From Candidatus Pacearchaeota archaeon (GTDB lineage: Archaea > Nanobdellota > Nanobdellia > Pacearchaeales > GW2011-AR1), in assembly GCA_017609795.1 (NCBI GenBank), contig JAFCDH010000001.1, forward strand, positions 1-52,934: a stretch of 52,934 nt of DNA. The letters run 5' to 3'. The notes below the pieces were generated by a model. That model was not told the DNA's origin, made no database searches, and worked only from the letters and a program-made list of their open reading frames with translations. Positions 44,887 through 52,934 of this stretch are shown here, in pieces. The first letter of the stretch is position 1. Every line of letters starts with the position of its first letter. A program made the translations under genes and the position numbers.

Positions 44887-45072
44887 TTAATCTTTGCTCT
44901 TTTGTTTTTTTGTTCTTCTTTTAAATTTTCTAATTATTTCTAAATCTTTTAATGTAATTATTTTCCCACAATCTTTACATTTTATAGTTGGAGTAGATTT
45001 TTTTCCATGAGCATAATTCCTCTTTAATCTTCTATGATTACATCTTCTCCCAAATTTATTATTAAATTTCAT
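44887..45072 (-). CDS. basic zinc-ribbon-like small protein
   Basis: RRCNHRR...CKDCGK. Confidence 0.45.
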   Translation of the reverse strand: MKFNNKFGRRCNHRRLKRNYAHGKKSTPTIKCKDCGKIITLKDLEIIRKFKRRTKKQKSKD

Positions 45073-45377
45073 TACTTTTTCTTTAGTATAATATCTAATG
45101 TCGAGACTTTTGTTTTTTTATCTGTTTCTTTTCCATCTTTGTCTTTCTTGTTAAACTCTTCACTTCCGGTCTTTATGCTTTCTGTTTCTACTTCATCTTT
45201 CATAAATCTCTGAGTTATGATTTGTTCTACATCAATTGCTGCGTTCATGTTTTTCCCTCTTGCTGAAATCTGAACTTTTTCCTGTCCTTCTTTGAACTGC
45301 ATCTGAACTGCATTAACATATGCCATCAATGGTTTGCTTCCTATAAAAACAATGTTGTCTTTTTTTTCTTCAGTCAT
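45072..45377 (-). CDS. albA: Alba chromatin protein (Sac10b family)
   Basis: IGSKPLMAYV, ISARGKNMNAAIDVEQIITQRF and KVSTLDIILKKK align with the Sso10b hallmarks. Confidence 0.9.
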   Translation of the reverse strand: MTEEKKDNIVFIGSKPLMAYVNAVQMQFKEGQEKVQISARGKNMNAAIDVEQIITQRFMKDEVETESIKTGSEEFNKKDKDGKETDKKTKVSTLDIILKKK

Positions 45378-46753: not shown

Positions 46754-47749
46754 TTAAAACATTTTATTTAATTCTTTATAAATCTCTTCTGAAGTAAATT
46801 TAACTATCCTTTTTCTTCCACCACCCCTTCCAAGATTTTTATGATAAGTTTCTATTACAGAATATTTTTCAAAAGTATTTAATAATTGAGAAATCCTAGC
46901 CTTAGAATAAAATTTCATTTTCTTTTCCAGATTCTCTGCAGTGGTTTCATTTTTCCAATCACAAGACCCTATAATATATCTTAAAAATTCTCTTTCTGTT
47001 TCATTAATATCATTAACAAAATCAAACCAATCTTGTTTTAACATTTGTTTATAAACATTGTCTATAAAGCTATGGGTAAAATTTCTTTTTTGAATACATT
47101 TAAGGGCTATATGGATTAATACTCTTGCAGAACCTTGCTGTCCTGCTATTGCAGAAATATAATTTAAAACCCCATCCTCAATCTTAGGTATCTTTGTTTT
47201 TATTTGTTTAATCCTTGAAATTAAAATATCTTTTAATTCTATAGAATTATAAGCAGGAAGACTTACTTTTTCAAAAAACAAAGTCTTTCTAGCATCTACA
47301 GGCATCTCAGAAATTATATTTCTTTTCATTGTTATAATAATTATTGGAATCATTGTGTTTCTATAAATTGTATTTAAATTATTAAACAATTGATTGACCC
47401 TGCTTATTTTATCTATCTCATCTATAATTAAAATGATTGGTTCTTCCTTAATCTTTTCTATTGTTCTTTTTAATAATTCCTCATTAGTTTTTATATTAAA
47501 ATTAAAGATTTTTTTTAAGGTCTTGTAAGGTGTTTGTGTTTCTAAACCAGAAACATAAATTGCATTATCTTGTTCTTCCAAAATCTTTTTTATAATGGTT
47601 GTTTTTCCACTCCCTGTAACACCTAATATTGCTAAATTAGTCCCACATTTATATTCTTTAAAATTAATAAAAACCTCCCTTATAACCTTCATTTGTTTGT
47701 CTCTATGTAAAATTTCTTTGGGTATATAAAAGTCTGATAATTCTAACAT
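46754..47749 (-). CDS. cdc6: Orc1/Cdc6 AAA+ replication initiator
   Basis: Walker A GVTGSGKTT, Walker B LIIDEIDK, C-terminal winged-helix-like region; adjacent ORB repeats. Confidence 0.85.
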   Translation of the reverse strand: MLELSDFYIPKEILHRDKQMKVIREVFINFKEYKCGTNLAILGVTGSGKTTIIKKILEEQDNAIYVSGLETQTPYKTLKKIFNFNIKTNEELLKRTIEKIKEEPIILIIDEIDKISRVNQLFNNLNTIYRNTMIPIIIITMKRNIISEMPVDARKTLFFEKVSLPAYNSIELKDILISRIKQIKTKIPKIEDGVLNYISAIAGQQGSARVLIHIALKCIQKRNFTHSFIDNVYKQMLKQDWFDFVNDINETEREFLRYIIGSCDWKNETTAENLEKKMKFYSKARISQLLNTFEKYSVIETYHKNLGRGGGRKRIVKFTSEEIYKELNKMF

Positions 47750-47792
47750 TAAACATTTAAAACACCAGAGTTTATAAATGTTTTGTTTAATT

Positions 47793-48065
47793 ATTTAAGT
47801 GTTTTACTATTCTTAAGTGTTTACATAAAATAATCATACGCGCGTGATTTAAGTGTTTGTGTTTCTAAGAAGAGTCAATCAACTCCCCTTAACACTTAAA
47901 TCACTCCCCTTAACACTTAAATCACGACATTTAAGTGTTCTTTATTATTATATTTGTTTATAAATTTTTATATTATATATTATATATATTGGAATTCCAA
48001 AATCAAAAAGTGTCGAATATAATAGTTAGTTATGGTGAATTAACAAGAACACTTAAATCACGCGC
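47793..48065. other. putative replication origin: 7 ORB-like repeats flanking an AT-rich DUE
   Basis: Core AACACTTAAAT(CAC) at 47891, 47912, 48048 (forward) and 47793, 47812, 47844, 47929 (reverse). Tandem 21-nt CTCCCCTTAACACTTAAATCA x2. 18-bp inverted repeat 47840-47857/48048-48065. Nearly pure A/T at 47941-47990. Confidence 0.7.
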
Positions 48066-48410: not shown

Positions 48411-48857
48411 TTAATATCTGAAAACTGTCCGAATAGTCATTCTTTCTCCAAACCAAGTAGAATCTACAATTAAAGTATCTTCATTATCATTAAAAAACAA
48501 AGCAGAGATTTGTATTAATTTTTCTATAATAAATTTTGTGCTTTCATCATTATTTAATGTGCTTCTTGGAGGAACATAGCTAATTAATCCTTGCTCAAAC
48601 ATCCATTTTAAATCTGTCTGAGTTCTTCTGTAACTCATTCCATTATAAGACATCATACAAAGAGACTTTATTATATCTTTAAAATTTGATTTTGGTCTGC
48701 CAGTTATTTGTAATCGTTCAAAATTGAGGGGTTCGATAAAATCGCATAGATTTTGGATAAAATTTTGTTTTTCAGTTTCAAGAGTTAAAGTATTCTTCTG
48801 CAAAGCTATAACTGAATCTTGTTTCTGATGAATACTTAATTTTGTTTGAAGTTCCAT
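48411..48857 (-). pseudogene. truncated IS5-family-like transposase (N-terminal DUF772-like part only)
   Basis: GRPKSNFKDIIKSLCMMSYNGMSYRRTQTDL resembles the IS5/InsH N-terminal domain; no DDE domain follows. Confidence 0.4.
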
Positions 48858-48864
48858 ATAACTA

Positions 48865-48949
48865 TTGGTACCAACTACTATTTAAACTTATTGGTACCAA
48901 AACATATATATTCGTTGGTACCACAATATTTATATACTCTTGGTACCAA
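48865..48949. repeat. four TTGGTACCA(A/C) palindromic boxes at 24-26-nt spacing (iteron/operator array)
   Basis: Boxes at 48865, 48891, 48915, 48940, each followed by an A/T-rich TATA-like stretch; they fill the 101-nt divergent intergenic region. Confidence 0.75.
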
Positions 48950-48958
48950 TTAATAAGA

Positions 48959-49780
48959 ATGAGGCTTCAAAAACATAAGGTTAGAAAAAGTGGTGATAAA
49001 GAATATTACAAATGGGTTCTTGTTGTGCCACCCAATAGAATTGAACAACTTGGATGGAAAGAAGGAATTGAGTTGAAAGATGAAGTTAAAGGAGAATCTC
49101 TTTGCATACAACCTCTTTCTAAAGAAGAATTAAAAGGAATCCAGGAAAAACCTTTATACGATGATTTCAAGAAATCAATAAAGACCATCTTAGAGAGACA
49201 TCCAAAAGGATTAACTTGGACACAGATAAGAGACAAATTAAACTTTCCACAAAAATATCCAAACAATCAATGGGTAAAGAAGTTAGAAAAGGATATTGGA
49301 TTAAAGAGAATTAAAACTGGTGGAGATTTGTTCTGGAGCTCAGAAAATGAAACGATTTACACAATAGGTTATGAAGGATATACTATTGAGAAATTTATTA
49401 AAAAATTAAGAGACAGCAACATTCAGCAATTAATAGACGTAAGAGAGATTGCTCTTAGTAGAAAAAATGGATTTTCAAAAACAATTTTAAGTAAAAGTTT
49501 GAAAGATGCTGGAATAAAATATAAACACATTCCAGAACTTGGTTCTCCAAAGCAAGTAAGGCACCAGTTACATAAAGACTTAGATTATGAAAAATTCTTT
49601 AAGGAATATAAACAACATATCAATGACCCAGACATTTTAGATAATATCTCAGATATAGAAGGAAGGGCGAGAAGGAAAAAAACAGTTCTATTATGTTATG
49701 AAAGGGATTATAAAATATGCCATAGAAGCATCATAGCAGAAGAGCTTAAGAGAAGGGGGTGGAAGGTTAATCATCTATAA
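48959..49780 (+). CDS. AbrB/SpoVT-like + winged-helix + DUF488 protein
   Basis: Track ORF from 48842 runs through the repeat array; ATG at 48959. VLVVPPNRIEQLGWKEGIEL; IYTIGYEGYTIEKF..LIDVREIALSRKNGFSK..YKHIPELG..LLCYERDYKICHR. Confidence 0.7.
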   Translation: MRLQKHKVRKSGDKEYYKWVLVVPPNRIEQLGWKEGIELKDEVKGESLCIQPLSKEELKGIQEKPLYDDFKKSIKTILERHPKGLTWTQIRDKLNFPQKYPNNQWVKKLEKDIGLKRIKTGGDLFWSSENETIYTIGYEGYTIEKFIKKLRDSNIQQLIDVREIALSRKNGFSKTILSKSLKDAGIKYKHIPELGSPKQVRHQLHKDLDYEKFFKEYKQHINDPDILDNISDIEGRARRKKTVLLCYERDYKICHRSIIAEELKRRGWKVNHL

Positions 49781-49781
49781 A

Positions 49782-50537
49782 ATGGTATTATTAAAGAATT
49801 TAATAGTTATAGGTCAAGGAGCTCCAAACCAATTAAAAGATGGGAGACAATCGGTTTGTGTTTGTGCTTGTAAATTAGATAGCAAGGAATTGATAAGAAT
49901 ATATCCCGTCCCAATTGGTTGGTTAAGAAAATGGGATATTTTTGACGCAGAAGTTGAAAAAAATCCAAGAGACCATAGGGAAAATACCTGGAAAATAAAA
50001 AATTCTAAACAAGATTGGAAGAAAATTTATAAATGGATAGACAGAAAAGAGGAAAAGTATCCAGATAAAAATAAGGAGGGATTAATAAAATCAATTGGAT
50101 TTAGTGTATTAAGCGATTTGATTGATAACAAGAAGAGTTTTGGCATCATAAAGCCCAAGATAGAAAATTTCGAGCTTGAACAAAAAAATAAAAGCACCTC
50201 AAAACAATTAACACTAAATTTTGGAGATGAACAGGACTTAGATGAGCCATTCACAATTATTAATCAGAAAGACTATAAATTTAAACCATATGTAGCTTAT
50301 AAATGTGCAGGAAACTGTAAATGTAAAAAGAAAGTACACAGACAAAGCATTTCAGAATGGGGATGTTATGAATTTATGAGGAAAAATCCTGGAAAAGAAG
50401 AACAGCTAAAAGATAACCTTAGATTATTTGACCCTGAGTGGAATGTCTATCTTTTAGTCGGAAATATTCATAAAGCACCACAAACATATATTATCATTGA
50501 TATTTTAAGATTTAAAAAGAAGGAGTTTAAAAAATGA
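49782..50537 (+). CDS. hypothetical protein (operon partner, Cys cluster CAGNCKCKKK)
   Basis: Track ORF; 1-nt gap upstream, ATGA overlap downstream. Confidence 0.55.
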   Translation: MVLLKNLIVIGQGAPNQLKDGRQSVCVCACKLDSKELIRIYPVPIGWLRKWDIFDAEVEKNPRDHRENTWKIKNSKQDWKKIYKWIDRKEEKYPDKNKEGLIKSIGFSVLSDLIDNKKSFGIIKPKIENFELEQKNKSTSKQLTLNFGDEQDLDEPFTIINQKDYKFKPYVAYKCAGNCKCKKKVHRQSISEWGCYEFMRKNPGKEEQLKDNLRLFDPEWNVYLLVGNIHKAPQTYIIIDILRFKKKEFKK

Positions 50538-51205
50538 ATTTTAAACTTTCTCCTTCTACTCTTAATATTATGCAAGAATGTCCAAGATGTTTCTGTCTCT
50601 CTCAACATAATGTCTGGAAAAGACCACCATCAATTTTTCCATCACTCCCCTCTGGGATGGATAGAATCCTAAAAACACATTTTGATAAATTCAGAGATAA
50701 AGGCGAGCTTCCACCAGAACTTTGTGATAATTCTCATTGCAAGAACATTGATAATTCTCATTGCAAGAACATGAAACTATTTGATGATGTAGAGAAAATG
50801 AAAGTTTGGCAATCAAATTTTAAAGGTATAAGTTGGACAGATAAAAATGGAAACAAATTACATGGAGCTGTAGATAATATTTTAGTAAAAGGAAAGAAGC
50901 TTATTGTTTTAGATTACAAGACAAGAGGTTATGCTCTTAAGGAAGATACAGCAGAACATTATAGATTACAACAAAATATTTACAATTTCTTGTTAAGAAA
51001 AAACGACTATCAAACAGAAGATTATTTTTTCTTGTTATTTTATGTTCCAAAAGAGGTTATGCCAACAGGAGAAGTTATATTTGATACAGAATTAGTCAAG
51101 ATGAAAGTAGATGTTTCTCAGGCAGAGAAGACTTGGAAAAAAGCACTAAAACTTTTAAACTCTGATTGTCCAACTAAATCATGCGAATGGTGTGAAGGAA
51201 GATGA
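50534..51205 (+). CDS. Cas4/RecB-like PD-(D/E)xK nuclease with Fe-S-type cysteines
   Basis: N-terminal CPRC, HGAVDNI, VLDYKT, QQNIYNF, C-terminal CPTKSCEWC. Confidence 0.6.
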   Translation: MNFKLSPSTLNIMQECPRCFCLSQHNVWKRPPSIFPSLPSGMDRILKTHFDKFRDKGELPPELCDNSHCKNIDNSHCKNMKLFDDVEKMKVWQSNFKGISWTDKNGNKLHGAVDNILVKGKKLIVLDYKTRGYALKEDTAEHYRLQQNIYNFLLRKNDYQTEDYFFLLFYVPKEVMPTGEVIFDTELVKMKVDVSQAEKTWKKALKLLNSDCPTKSCEWCEGR

Positions 51206-52934
51206 AAAAAGCAAAGAAAAAAACAACGAAGAAGACTAAGAAAAAGCAAAAGAAAGAATCTATTAAATTAGGAGAGTATATTAGGGAATCCAAAAAAGAG
51301 ATTAAGAAAGATGAAGTAGAAATAAATGTTGAGATTCCTAAACAAGTAGAGTTCTTTAAAACCCCTGTAAGATTTGGAAACATCCCTGTTGACACTCTTC
51401 CTCTTGGGTGTGATGAAAAGGAACAATACAGAAAACTATATCCAAAGGTTTCTCTTCCTTTCCAGATTGTTGAAAGAGTTACATTAGGACATCCAAAATT
51501 AGAAGCAAACAAATTAATCTTTGGAGATAATTTACATTTAATGAGGATGTTGCCTTCTAATTCAATTGACCTCATTTATATTGACCCCCCATTTTTTTCT
51601 GGTAGAAATTATAATGTGGTTTTCGGAGATTCAAATGAAGTTAGAAGTTTTACAGATATATGGGAAGGTGGAATGCCTGGTTATTTAACTTGGTTAAATG
51701 CAAGATTATTAGAGATGAAGAGGTTACTGAAACCTACGGGTTCTATTTTGGTTCATTTAGACCATCATGCAGGGCATTATGTTAAGGTTGAGATGGATAA
51801 AATTTTTGGTTATGAAAATTTCCGAAATGAAATAGTTTGGCATTACTTTATGGGTGGGAAAGCATCTACTTTTTTTGGTAGGAAACATGATGTTATTTTA
51901 TGGTATTCTAAAGGAAAGGAATGGAGTTTTAATAAAATGCAAAAGAAGAGAAGATTGGACTTTAAGCCATCTCTTCCCGCAAAATCTTCAACAGGGAAAA
52001 AGATAGAAGATAAAACTGGAAAAGATGAATTTGGATATTATAGTATTGTTTCTATGGATGATGTGTGGGATATAAGAGGAGTATTTAATATGGGAAAAGA
52101 ATATATGGGCTATCCTACACAGAAGCCTGAAGAATTACTAAAAAGATTTTTAGAAGCATTATCCAAACCAGGAGACGTAGTAGCAGATTTCTTTTGTGGG
52201 GGAGGAACAACTCCTGCAGTTGCTCAGAAGTTAGGAAGAAGATGGATTGCTTCGGACATCTCAAAGATTGCTGTTTCTGTTACAAGAGATAGATTATTAA
52301 GAGATATTTTAGGAGATGATGGAAAAACAGTTCAACAATCAATAACAAAAGTTCCAGACATTGAGGTTTCTCACTGGGGAGTTTATGAAGTTCCAGAATT
52401 AATTAAAATGAATGAAGAGTCTTTTAGAAATTTTATTATCTCTGCTTATAACGGAAGATTATCAAGTATGGAAGGACTTATTCATGGATATAAACAATCT
52501 ATTCCCCTGTTTGTGGGGAGTCCATCTCAAGAAAAACCAATTACAGAAAAAGAAGTTGTTGCTTTTGCTAAAGAGATTGTTAAGAAAAGAGGACATCACT
52601 CTGGAACAATGATTTCTTGGGGATTCACGCCTGGAGCTCAAAAAGCCGCACAAGAACTTAAAGCACAGCATGCTTTGGCTATTGATTTTGTAAAAATAGA
52701 TTTGGTCAATATTGAATCAGAGAAGTTTAGAGAACATATTTCAAAGTACGGTGGAGAATATAAACAACTCCTTAAATTTATTCTTCCGCCACAAGTTAGA
52801 ATCTCTCATAAAAAAATTCAAGATACAAAATATGAATTTGATGTTTCAGAATCTGTTTCATTAAATCCAGAAGGAAGAATAATTAATGTTCAATGGGATT
52901 TTAGTTACAATGGAGAAAGATTCATTTCAACTCC
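51202..52934 (+). CDS. beta-class N6-adenine/N4-cytosine DNA methyltransferase (partial, runs off window)
   Basis: Hand-translated open frame from the ATGA overlap; IYIDPPFF (motif IV), YPTQKPEELLKRF, ADFFCGGGTT (motif I); not in the track because there is no stop. Confidence 0.85.
   Translation, partial: MKKAKKKTTKKTKKKQKKESIKLGEYIRESKKEIKKDEVEINVEIPKQVEFFKTPVRFGNIPVDTLPLGCDEKEQYRKLYPKVSLPFQIVERVTLGHPKLEANKLIFGDNLHLMRMLPSNSIDLIYIDPPFFSGRNYNVVFGDSNEVRSFTDIWEGGMPGYLTWLNARLLEMKRLLKPTGSILVHLDHHAGHYVKVEMDKIFGYENFRNEIVWHYFMGGKASTFFGRKHDVILWYSKGKEWSFNKMQKKRRLDFKPSLPAKSSTGKKIEDKTGKDEFGYYSIVSMDDVWDIRGVFNMGKEYMGYPTQKPEELLKRFLEALSKPGDVVADFFCGGGTTPAVAQKLGRRWIASDISKIAVSVTRDRLLRDILGDDGKTVQQSITKVPDIEVSHWGVYEVPELIKMNEESFRNFIISAYNGRLSSMEGLIHGYKQSIPLFVGSPSQEKPITEKEVVAFAKEIVKKRGHHSGTMISWGFTPGAQKAAQELKAQHALAIDFVKIDLVNIESEKFREHISKYGGEYKQLLKFILPPQVRISHKKIQDTKYEFDVSESVSLNPEGRIINVQWDFSYNGERFIST

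Follow-up and report, generated by a model that had tools for sequence, protein, structure and literature searches.

The window analysed here is an entire contig of 52.9 kb (C78, hereafter the contig) that was assigned to the metagenome-assembled genome (MAG) of a DPANN archaeon. It carries a gene of the Orc1/Cdc6 initiator family, here called orc1, and directly upstream of it an array of short oriented repeats that, together with an AT-rich block, most probably constitutes a replication origin. The origin features lie 42-316 bp upstream of the orc1 ATG (47749), and their repeated unit is an 11-nt box, AACACTTAAAT, which takes the form AACACTTAAAT(C/G)AC in the window. Six exact boxes, three in each orientation, are packed into 266 bp, as compared with four scattered copies, all of them single, in the 883-kb genome and no other site in the contig. 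A seventh, degenerate box (TCTTAAGTGTT, 9/11 identical) stands in reverse orientation. When boxes with up to one mismatch were counted, the observed number was reached in 0 of 100 shuffles; the box cluster is far above chance expectation.

Two of the exact boxes reside in identical 21-nt tandem units (ACTCCCCTTAACACTTAAATC), one box per unit, and two boxes placed head to head around a 6-bp GC-rich spacer form a 28-bp palindrome. In addition, a perfect 18-bp inverted repeat (GCGCGTGATTTAAGTGTT / AACACTTAAATCACGCGC), the arms of which stretch to 35 nt at 80% complementarity, brackets the locus. The palindrome box at 47929-47939 adjoins a 50-nt stretch (47941-47990) composed of 17 A, 32 T and a single G, without any C, and stretches of this length with at most one G or C occur once in the contig and six times in the whole genome, which has 27% G+C. 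The boxes flanking this putative unwinding element are in inverted orientation, with their AACAC ends facing the AT-rich block from both sides. An earlier note, made from the sequence before any database search, had listed the seven boxes, a 331-aa orc1/cdc6 gene, the bracketing inverted repeat and the stretch with a single G, and all of these were recovered at the positions it gave.

The 331-aa protein contains only generic AAA domains according to Pfam (AAA_22, AAA_14 and AAA), and aligns end to end with the Orc1/Cdc6 profile TIGR02928 (residues 4-317 on profile positions 8-365 of 366, E 1.3e-25). Its top sequence match in the PDB is Orc1-1 of Sulfolobus (Sso, 2qby_A). The AlphaFold2 model, computed with 46 homologues, has a predicted local distance difference test score (pLDDT) of 91, and in Foldseek it matches over its whole length both 2qby_A, which is Orc1-1 on origin DNA (template modelling score, TM, 0.77), and 2v1u_A, the ORC1 of Aeropyrum on origin DNA (TM 0.74). 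The Walker A (G43-x2-G46-S47-G48-K49-T50) and Walker B (D110-E111) motifs are invariant or nearly so across the 46 homologues, which also conserve R285, S287 and Q288 of the recognition helix and G307, R308, G311, R312 and R314 of the wing. In the model, the C-terminal winged-helix domain is built from two helices (271-277 and 283-295) followed by a beta hairpin (299-318). Extra helices (68-71 and 74-82) after strand 63-67 are a candidate for the initiator-specific motif (ISM), a helical insert that in this family comes between strand 2 and the following core helix. The TIGR02928 score of 90 bits is below the curated cut-off of 181.3 bits, as opposed to 334 bits for the canonical Orc1 of the host (contig C5), and the protein was therefore placed in a divergent, compact subfamily. 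Sequence and model together indicate that it is a genuine three-domain member of the Orc1/Cdc6 family.

The region upstream of the orc1 homologue was read in 11 distinct relatives, the initiators of which are 37-83% identical to that of the window, and the same origin plan is present in all 11. In the orientation of orc1, this plan begins with an outer box carrying a CGCGCG extension, which is followed by the AT-rich block, by a 28-bp palindrome of two boxes with a 6-bp GC-rich spacer, one box of which touches the AT block, and by a second outer box with CGCGCG, inverted with respect to the first. Two to four direct boxes come next, and the last element is a TATA box, some 28 nt ahead of the ATG. 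The pair of outer boxes with CGCGCG is found in L006, L007, L008, L174 and L178, as are the direct boxes between outer box and TATA box; the 28-bp palindrome with its 6-bp spacer is found in L006, L007, L008 and L178, and 8 of the 11 relatives have a TTATAAA between -26 and -47. The archaeal oriC layout proposed in the earlier note, with inverted initiator boxes around an unwinding element, is thus borne out, and the repeats that it expected next to orc1 in relatives are there in every case examined. The note was also correct about the tandem units, which are present and identical, and not about their CTCCCC end, which it had read as a G-string: what is conserved as a GC-rich extension is CGCGCG, on the two outer boxes. 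The nearest relatives have one copy at the tandem site, without the GGGG/CCCC extension, and the tandem of ACTCCCCTTAACACTTAAATC is a recent duplication specific to the window.

The sequence of the box itself shifts with the initiator clade, while its AACAC/CAC core remains constant. The word CACTTAAA is used by the window and by L008, L006, L007, L172 and L174, CACATTAA by L178, CACGTAAA by L092, CACTTTA[AGT] by L176, L093 and L094, and CACTGTAA / CACTGAAA by L009; AACACATTAAT, AACACGTAAAC and AACACTTTAAT are also given as box words of relatives. Clades with altered box words also carry substitutions in the recognition helix and the wing, and such co-variation is what cognate replicator-initiator pairs would be expected to show. 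The family is widespread in metagenomes, where contigs of up to 89 kb carry at least 146 homologues with lengths near 330 aa. A scan of the GTDB representative genomes returned a single member (L009), the others being canonical Orc1, and a scan of JGI metagenomes returned four more.

The AT-rich block connects this locus with the chromosome. A genome-wide search with the block gave as its top match the chromosomal oriC on C5 (C5:8485-8543, 59 nt, 80% identity, E 3e-10), the runner-up reaching 42 bits. An nhmmer profile and a sequence-only Infernal model were built solely from 12 element sequences. The nhmmer profile matches C5 at E 4e-4, and none of some 160 loci with canonical orc1 in other archaea is matched at E<0.01. 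When the Infernal model was run on 41 related genomes, 7/7 of the best matches outside the genome of the window were located 300-400 bp upstream of canonical orc1, and in a class-wide sample 3 of the 4 best matches outside that genome were likewise at this distance. Altogether, profiles built from the elements retrieve the oriC of the host chromosome and those of 10 related genomes.

The host oriC, upstream of canonical orc1, has classical origin recognition boxes (ORBs; TTCCA-N3/4-GAAA-N-GGGG) around an AT block, and across the lineage the order is a reversed ORB (CCCC..TTTC..TGGAA), a TATA-like word, a duplex unwinding element (DUE) of about 45 nt, two forward ORBs and orc1. These chromosomal origins contain classical ORBs and zero AACACTTAA, and their only alignable intergenic blocks are the DUE and the left ORB (Orc1 50-84% identical to that of the host). 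In the window, the centre of the DUE reads TTTATAAAT(W)TTTATAT...ATATATATT. GTGTT or a near variant opens the AT block in 8 of 12 aligned sequences, and in the window the GTGTT end of the palindrome is 17 nt from TTTATAAA. These alignments indicate that the AT block is homologous in sequence to the chromosomal unwinding elements of the host lineage, and that the origin is modular, with a private initiator and private boxes joined to a host-type DUE (TTTATTTATAAA-NN-TTTATAT...ATATATATT). As a by-product, the chromosomal oriC of the host lineage could be pinpointed (Table 1).

Table 1. Positions of the origin features, the initiator gene and neighbouring or related loci; coordinates refer to the contig unless another contig is named.
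Feature	Location	Strand	Remarks
Compact Orc1/Cdc6-family initiator gene (orc1), 331 aa	46754-47749	-	Assigned by profile, PDB sequence match and predicted fold
Putative orc1 promoter, TATA box TTTATAAA	47771-47778	-	Direct reading; about 28 nt before ATG
Two promoter-proximal boxes, in orc1 orientation	47793-47821	-	Exact copy 47793-47803; 9/11 copy 47811-47821
Outer long box, orc1-proximal arm: AACACTTAAATCAC + GCGC(G) GC extension	47840-47857	-	Arm of the 18-bp inverted repeat
Two 21-nt tandem units ACTCCCCTTAACACTTAAATC	47882-47923	+	47882-47902 and 47903-47923, 100% identical; boxes at 47891-47901 and 47912-47922
28-bp palindrome of two head-to-head boxes, AACACTTAAAT CACGAC ATTTAAGTGTT	47912-47939		6-bp GC-rich spacer
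Predicted host-type DUE	47935-47995	+	Core 47941-47990
Outer long box, distal arm: AACACTTAAATCACGCGC	48048-48065	+	AACAC end toward the unwinding element
Exact boxes, forward (first positions)	47891, 47912, 48048	+	
Exact boxes, reverse (first positions)	47793, 47847, 47929	-	
Chromosomal oriC of the host lineage	C5:8440-8770		Also loci L181-L187, L193, L194, L196
Canonical Orc1 frame of the host, 772 aa	C5:8827-11142		Loci L001/L003
Alba gene	45072-45377	-	1.4 kb from orc1
HNH endonuclease gene, 120 aa	46390-46752	-	Begins 1 nt past the orc1 stop
Open reading frame, 148 aa	48411-48857	-	Between origin and strand switch
DNA-metabolism block	48842-52932	+	Diverges from the origin side

The replicon to which the locus belongs is not the host chromosome. 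The source MAG consists of 79 contigs (883 kb, 83% complete), and the assignment of the contig to it is supported by composition and the DUE match. Virus-like genes of the contig encode an A32/FtsK-like ATPase, a tail-fibre chaperone domain and surface proteins with CARDB, Ig-like and CBM domains, as well as HNH and PD-(D/E)XK nucleases, DNA methylases and Alba. No MCM gene is present on the element, the only MCM of the host being on contig C43, ARAGORN detected no tRNA in the contig, and the initiator of the element is found in 1 of the 301 genomes of the order. Owing to these virus-like genes, the lack of MCM and tRNA, the sporadic distribution and the canonical Orc1 on C5, the replicon is regarded as a sporadic mobile element rather than a chromosome; its gene content suggests a virus-like or plasmid-like element of about 53 kb that is carried by, or was binned with, a DPANN archaeon. 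Searches of IMG/VR (protein and alignment) and tblastn searches of GenBank phages and PLSDB plasmids yielded best matches of only 24-26% identity, and archaeal-virus records likewise contain no close relative. The proposal that the locus defines the origin of the replicon is therefore supported as far as the oriC-like module is concerned and has to be modified as to the replicon, since the chromosomal oriC is on C5.

The full-length Orc1/Cdc6 protein, the box cluster, the conserved layout, the co-variation and the DUE homology together argue, with a high degree of confidence, that 47771-48065 is the replication origin and initiator promoter of a virus-like element of about 53 kb from a DPANN archaeon. 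In the proposed mechanism, monomers of the element Orc1/Cdc6 would bind the oriented AACACTTAAAT(C/G)AC boxes through the winged helix and the insert of the ATPase domain (ISM), and the boxes of both sides would aim their AACAC ends at the central AT-rich element. The CGCGCG extension of the outer pair, on the distal side, would occupy the position of the G-string in classical ORBs. ATP-bound Orc1 would then recruit the sole MCM of the host to the unwinding element for the origin to fire, and the host-type DUE has probably been kept because a host component acts there, either MCM itself or a UBP-like DUE-binding factor. As judged from the archaeal TATA consensus, TTTATAAA is the likely promoter of orc1, and its short distance from the ATG would imply a leaderless or near-leaderless mRNA. 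The two promoter-proximal boxes are candidate autoregulatory sites, and the direct boxes near the TATA box probably permit Orc1 to control its own synthesis.

Several points weigh against this interpretation. Besides the sub-cut-off profile score of the initiator, the box departs from the consensus of ORBs and mini-ORBs, which has a TTCC...GAA core and may include a G-string, as the earlier note had remarked for the published ORB consensus, and binding of Orc1 to the boxes is suggested by their position and by co-variation. The contamination of the MAG is 6.5%, by which the binning of the contig could be wrong, and the contig is not closed, with neither direct nor inverted terminal repeats at its ends. 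Furthermore, the DUE variant of the window is no nearer to that of C5 than to the oriCs of some relatives, which bears on the link to the host. The lowest point of the cumulative GC skew falls at 47-49 kb, where an inflection had been anticipated, yet its sign tracks the gene strand block by block; at fourfold sites the G/C counts are too few and the comparison is underpowered. GC/AT skew was therefore dropped as independent evidence for the origin, because it follows the coding strand.

Three other explanations of the repeats have been considered, all of them at odds with the homology of the core to oriC, the single-copy nature of the cluster, its exclusive linkage to orc1 and the absence of a non-coding RNA signal. 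As to the last point, an Rfam scan of the region gave two sub-threshold chance matches only, for which reason a non-coding RNA reading was dropped. A scan for sigma-70 promoters and terminators gave matches no commoner than in shuffles, with a model that is not applicable to archaea.

The repeats might serve solely as an operator array, with the orc1 promoter under the control of the Orc1-like protein or of some other regulator, and replication beginning elsewhere or by other means. Such a role would fit the direct boxes, two to four in number, that immediately precede the TATA box in the window and its relatives, and there are Orc1 paralogues that regulate transcription instead of initiating replication, an example being Sulfolobus Orc1-2 (PMC9738581). 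However, an operator leaves unexplained the inverted box arms at 100-300 bp, the unique 50-nt AT block and the homology of that block to oriC, and the contig yielded neither a further initiator nor another site of the DUE type. This explanation is considered unlikely.

The segment 47840-48065 is bounded by perfect 18-bp terminal inverted repeats, as a miniature transposable element or an invertible switch would be, and the orientation of its inner part does vary. With the window and the partial locus L095 included, the core (unwinding element plus inner palindrome) has the same orientation relative to orc1 in 6 cases and the opposite one in 7, and it is flipped even between close relatives (L007:3850-4090 versus the window, L008 and L006). 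The split points to recurrent flipping of the core by inversion between the outer boxes of the elements; in the chromosomal oriCs examined, the orientation of the core is invariant (8/8). Inversion is, however, just as well explained if the inverted boxes of a symmetric origin recombine with each other. Moreover, the cluster is single-copy in the 883-kb genome, with the other four 11-mer matches isolated, in relatives it always lies beside orc1 with arm sequences that co-evolved, no recombinase is consistently adjacent, and the inner segment is oriC-like, all of which makes a transposable element or switch very improbable.

A packaging (pac/cos) or partition site, read by a packaging ATPase or a partition protein, would be in keeping with the A32/FtsK-like ATPase of the element and with the HerA/DUF87 ATPase gene that lies between the repeats and orc1 in L007 and just downstream in L174 and L177, but it is just as hard to credit, given that orc1 alone is invariably linked to the repeats, that the ATPase gene of the window is 10 kb away and its product only distant kin of that of L007 (24% over 163 aa), that the box words co-vary with the Orc1 clades, and that the chromosomal oriC homology favours replication. 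An equation of the HerA-type ATPase of L007 with the A32-like ATPase of the window was dropped, since the similarity of their shared core is only distant.

The retention of a host-type DUE by an origin with a private initiator may have a wider meaning. It is quite conceivable, if somewhat short of probable, that the DUE is a sequence-specific module that has to be recognised by the host (by MCM or a DUE-binding protein), so that elements copy it faithfully while the initiator and box pair evolves freely. If this is true, origin firing needs a second recognition step that is independent of the initiator, and a DUE signature of about 45 nt (TTTATTTATAAA-NN-TTTATAT...ATATATATT) marks the chromosomal oriC throughout the lineage. 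DUE matching could then link uncultivated elements to host clades. A DUE kept beside a private initiator would suggest a reader other than Orc1, which bears on the loading or release of archaeal MCM. No paper describing a DPANN replication origin was found in the literature searched, and these archaea are uncultivated. For large elements associated with DPANN archaea, which form a widespread family, the locus supplies a replicator-initiator pair that can be put to the test.

The origin-initiator module is real and conserved and is of the archaeal Orc1/ORB/DUE kind, with a previously undescribed box family and a compact initiator. In Sulfolobus, oriC1 (ORB3-DUE-ORB2) and Orc1-1 show the same arrangement of an initiator gene beside the origin and of inverted, oriented boxes around an AT-rich DUE, and it is Orc1-1 on DNA that the fold of the present protein matches. 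An 11-bp motif in the DUE, ucm, is common to oriC1, oriC2 and oriC3 despite their different initiators and is bound by the MCM-interacting protein UBP (PMC12141716). Similarly, the DUE motif described here seems to be shared by origins with different initiators in one cell. At oriC1, it is the ATP form of Orc1-1 that recruits MCM (PMC12141716). The present system differs from that of Sulfolobus in several ways: its box AACACTTAAAT bears no relation to the ORB dyad, its initiator has about 55 aa fewer than Orc1-1 and does not reach the TIGR02928 cut-off, its replicon is mobile, the shared DUE block extends over about 45 nt instead of 11 bp, and any counterpart of UBP is putative.

The oriC of Pyrococcus and other Thermococcales has 34-bp ORBs and 13-bp mini-ORBs such as TTCCAGTGGAACT, and here too long outer inverted boxes are combined with short versions near AT-rich regions upstream of cdc6/orc1 (PMC1904270). 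Read in reverse complement, the present box (TTTAAGTGTTAA) has a central AGTG and a size of 11-13 nt in common with the mini-ORB, but it lacks the conserved TTCC and GAA cores of ORBs and mini-ORBs. The host chromosome uses the classical ORB type, and two distinct box systems therefore coexist. In haloarchaea, for example at oriP-cdc6K of Haloarcula hispanica, each Cdc6/Orc1 family has a cognate ORB family; as in the present case, co-variation was the basis on which the specificity of pairing was deduced, such pairs occur on extrachromosomal elements (minichromosomes and megaplasmids), and a part in regulation has been proposed for the ORB clusters close to the gene (PMC4010727). The differences lie in the DPANN lineage, in the initiator subfamily and box word, and in the DUE, which here is conserved with the chromosomal one.

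By analogy, iteron plasmids of bacteria, for example RK2 (oriV) and pSC101, possess their own Rep protein and iterons together with host-type AT-rich repeats, and rely on the host helicase. They resemble the present element in combining a private initiator and repeats with a melting region shaped by the loading of the host helicase, and their promoter-near repeats are autoregulatory; the proteins are Rep, DnaA and DnaB, as opposed to an AAA+ Orc1 and MCM here.

Genes diverge from about 48.8 kb, just past the origin, which accords with the assignment of the origin. On the far side, the DNA-metabolism block encodes a DUF488 protein with a long N-terminal extension, an unassigned 251-aa protein, a PD-(D/E)XK nuclease and, cut off by the contig end, an N6/N4 DNA methylase. 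The 148-aa open reading frame before the strand switch has faint similarity to the N-terminal part of IS5 transposases (E 0.015) and may be a gene remnant. On the other side, the top NCBIfam match of the 120-aa HNH protein is the HNH region of IscB (E 1.2e-8, far under the cut-off). An Alba gene is also located downstream of orc1 in L007, and in several relatives a tRNA-Met (CAT) gene lies 1-3 kb from the origin (L176:3194-3270, L174:3045-3132 and L007:1234-1306). On the host chromosome, the Orc1 proteins of relatives align with the 772-aa canonical Orc1 at residues ~7-98 and ~383/439-772 only, and the ~300-340 aa near Walker A that they are missing represent a candidate intein.

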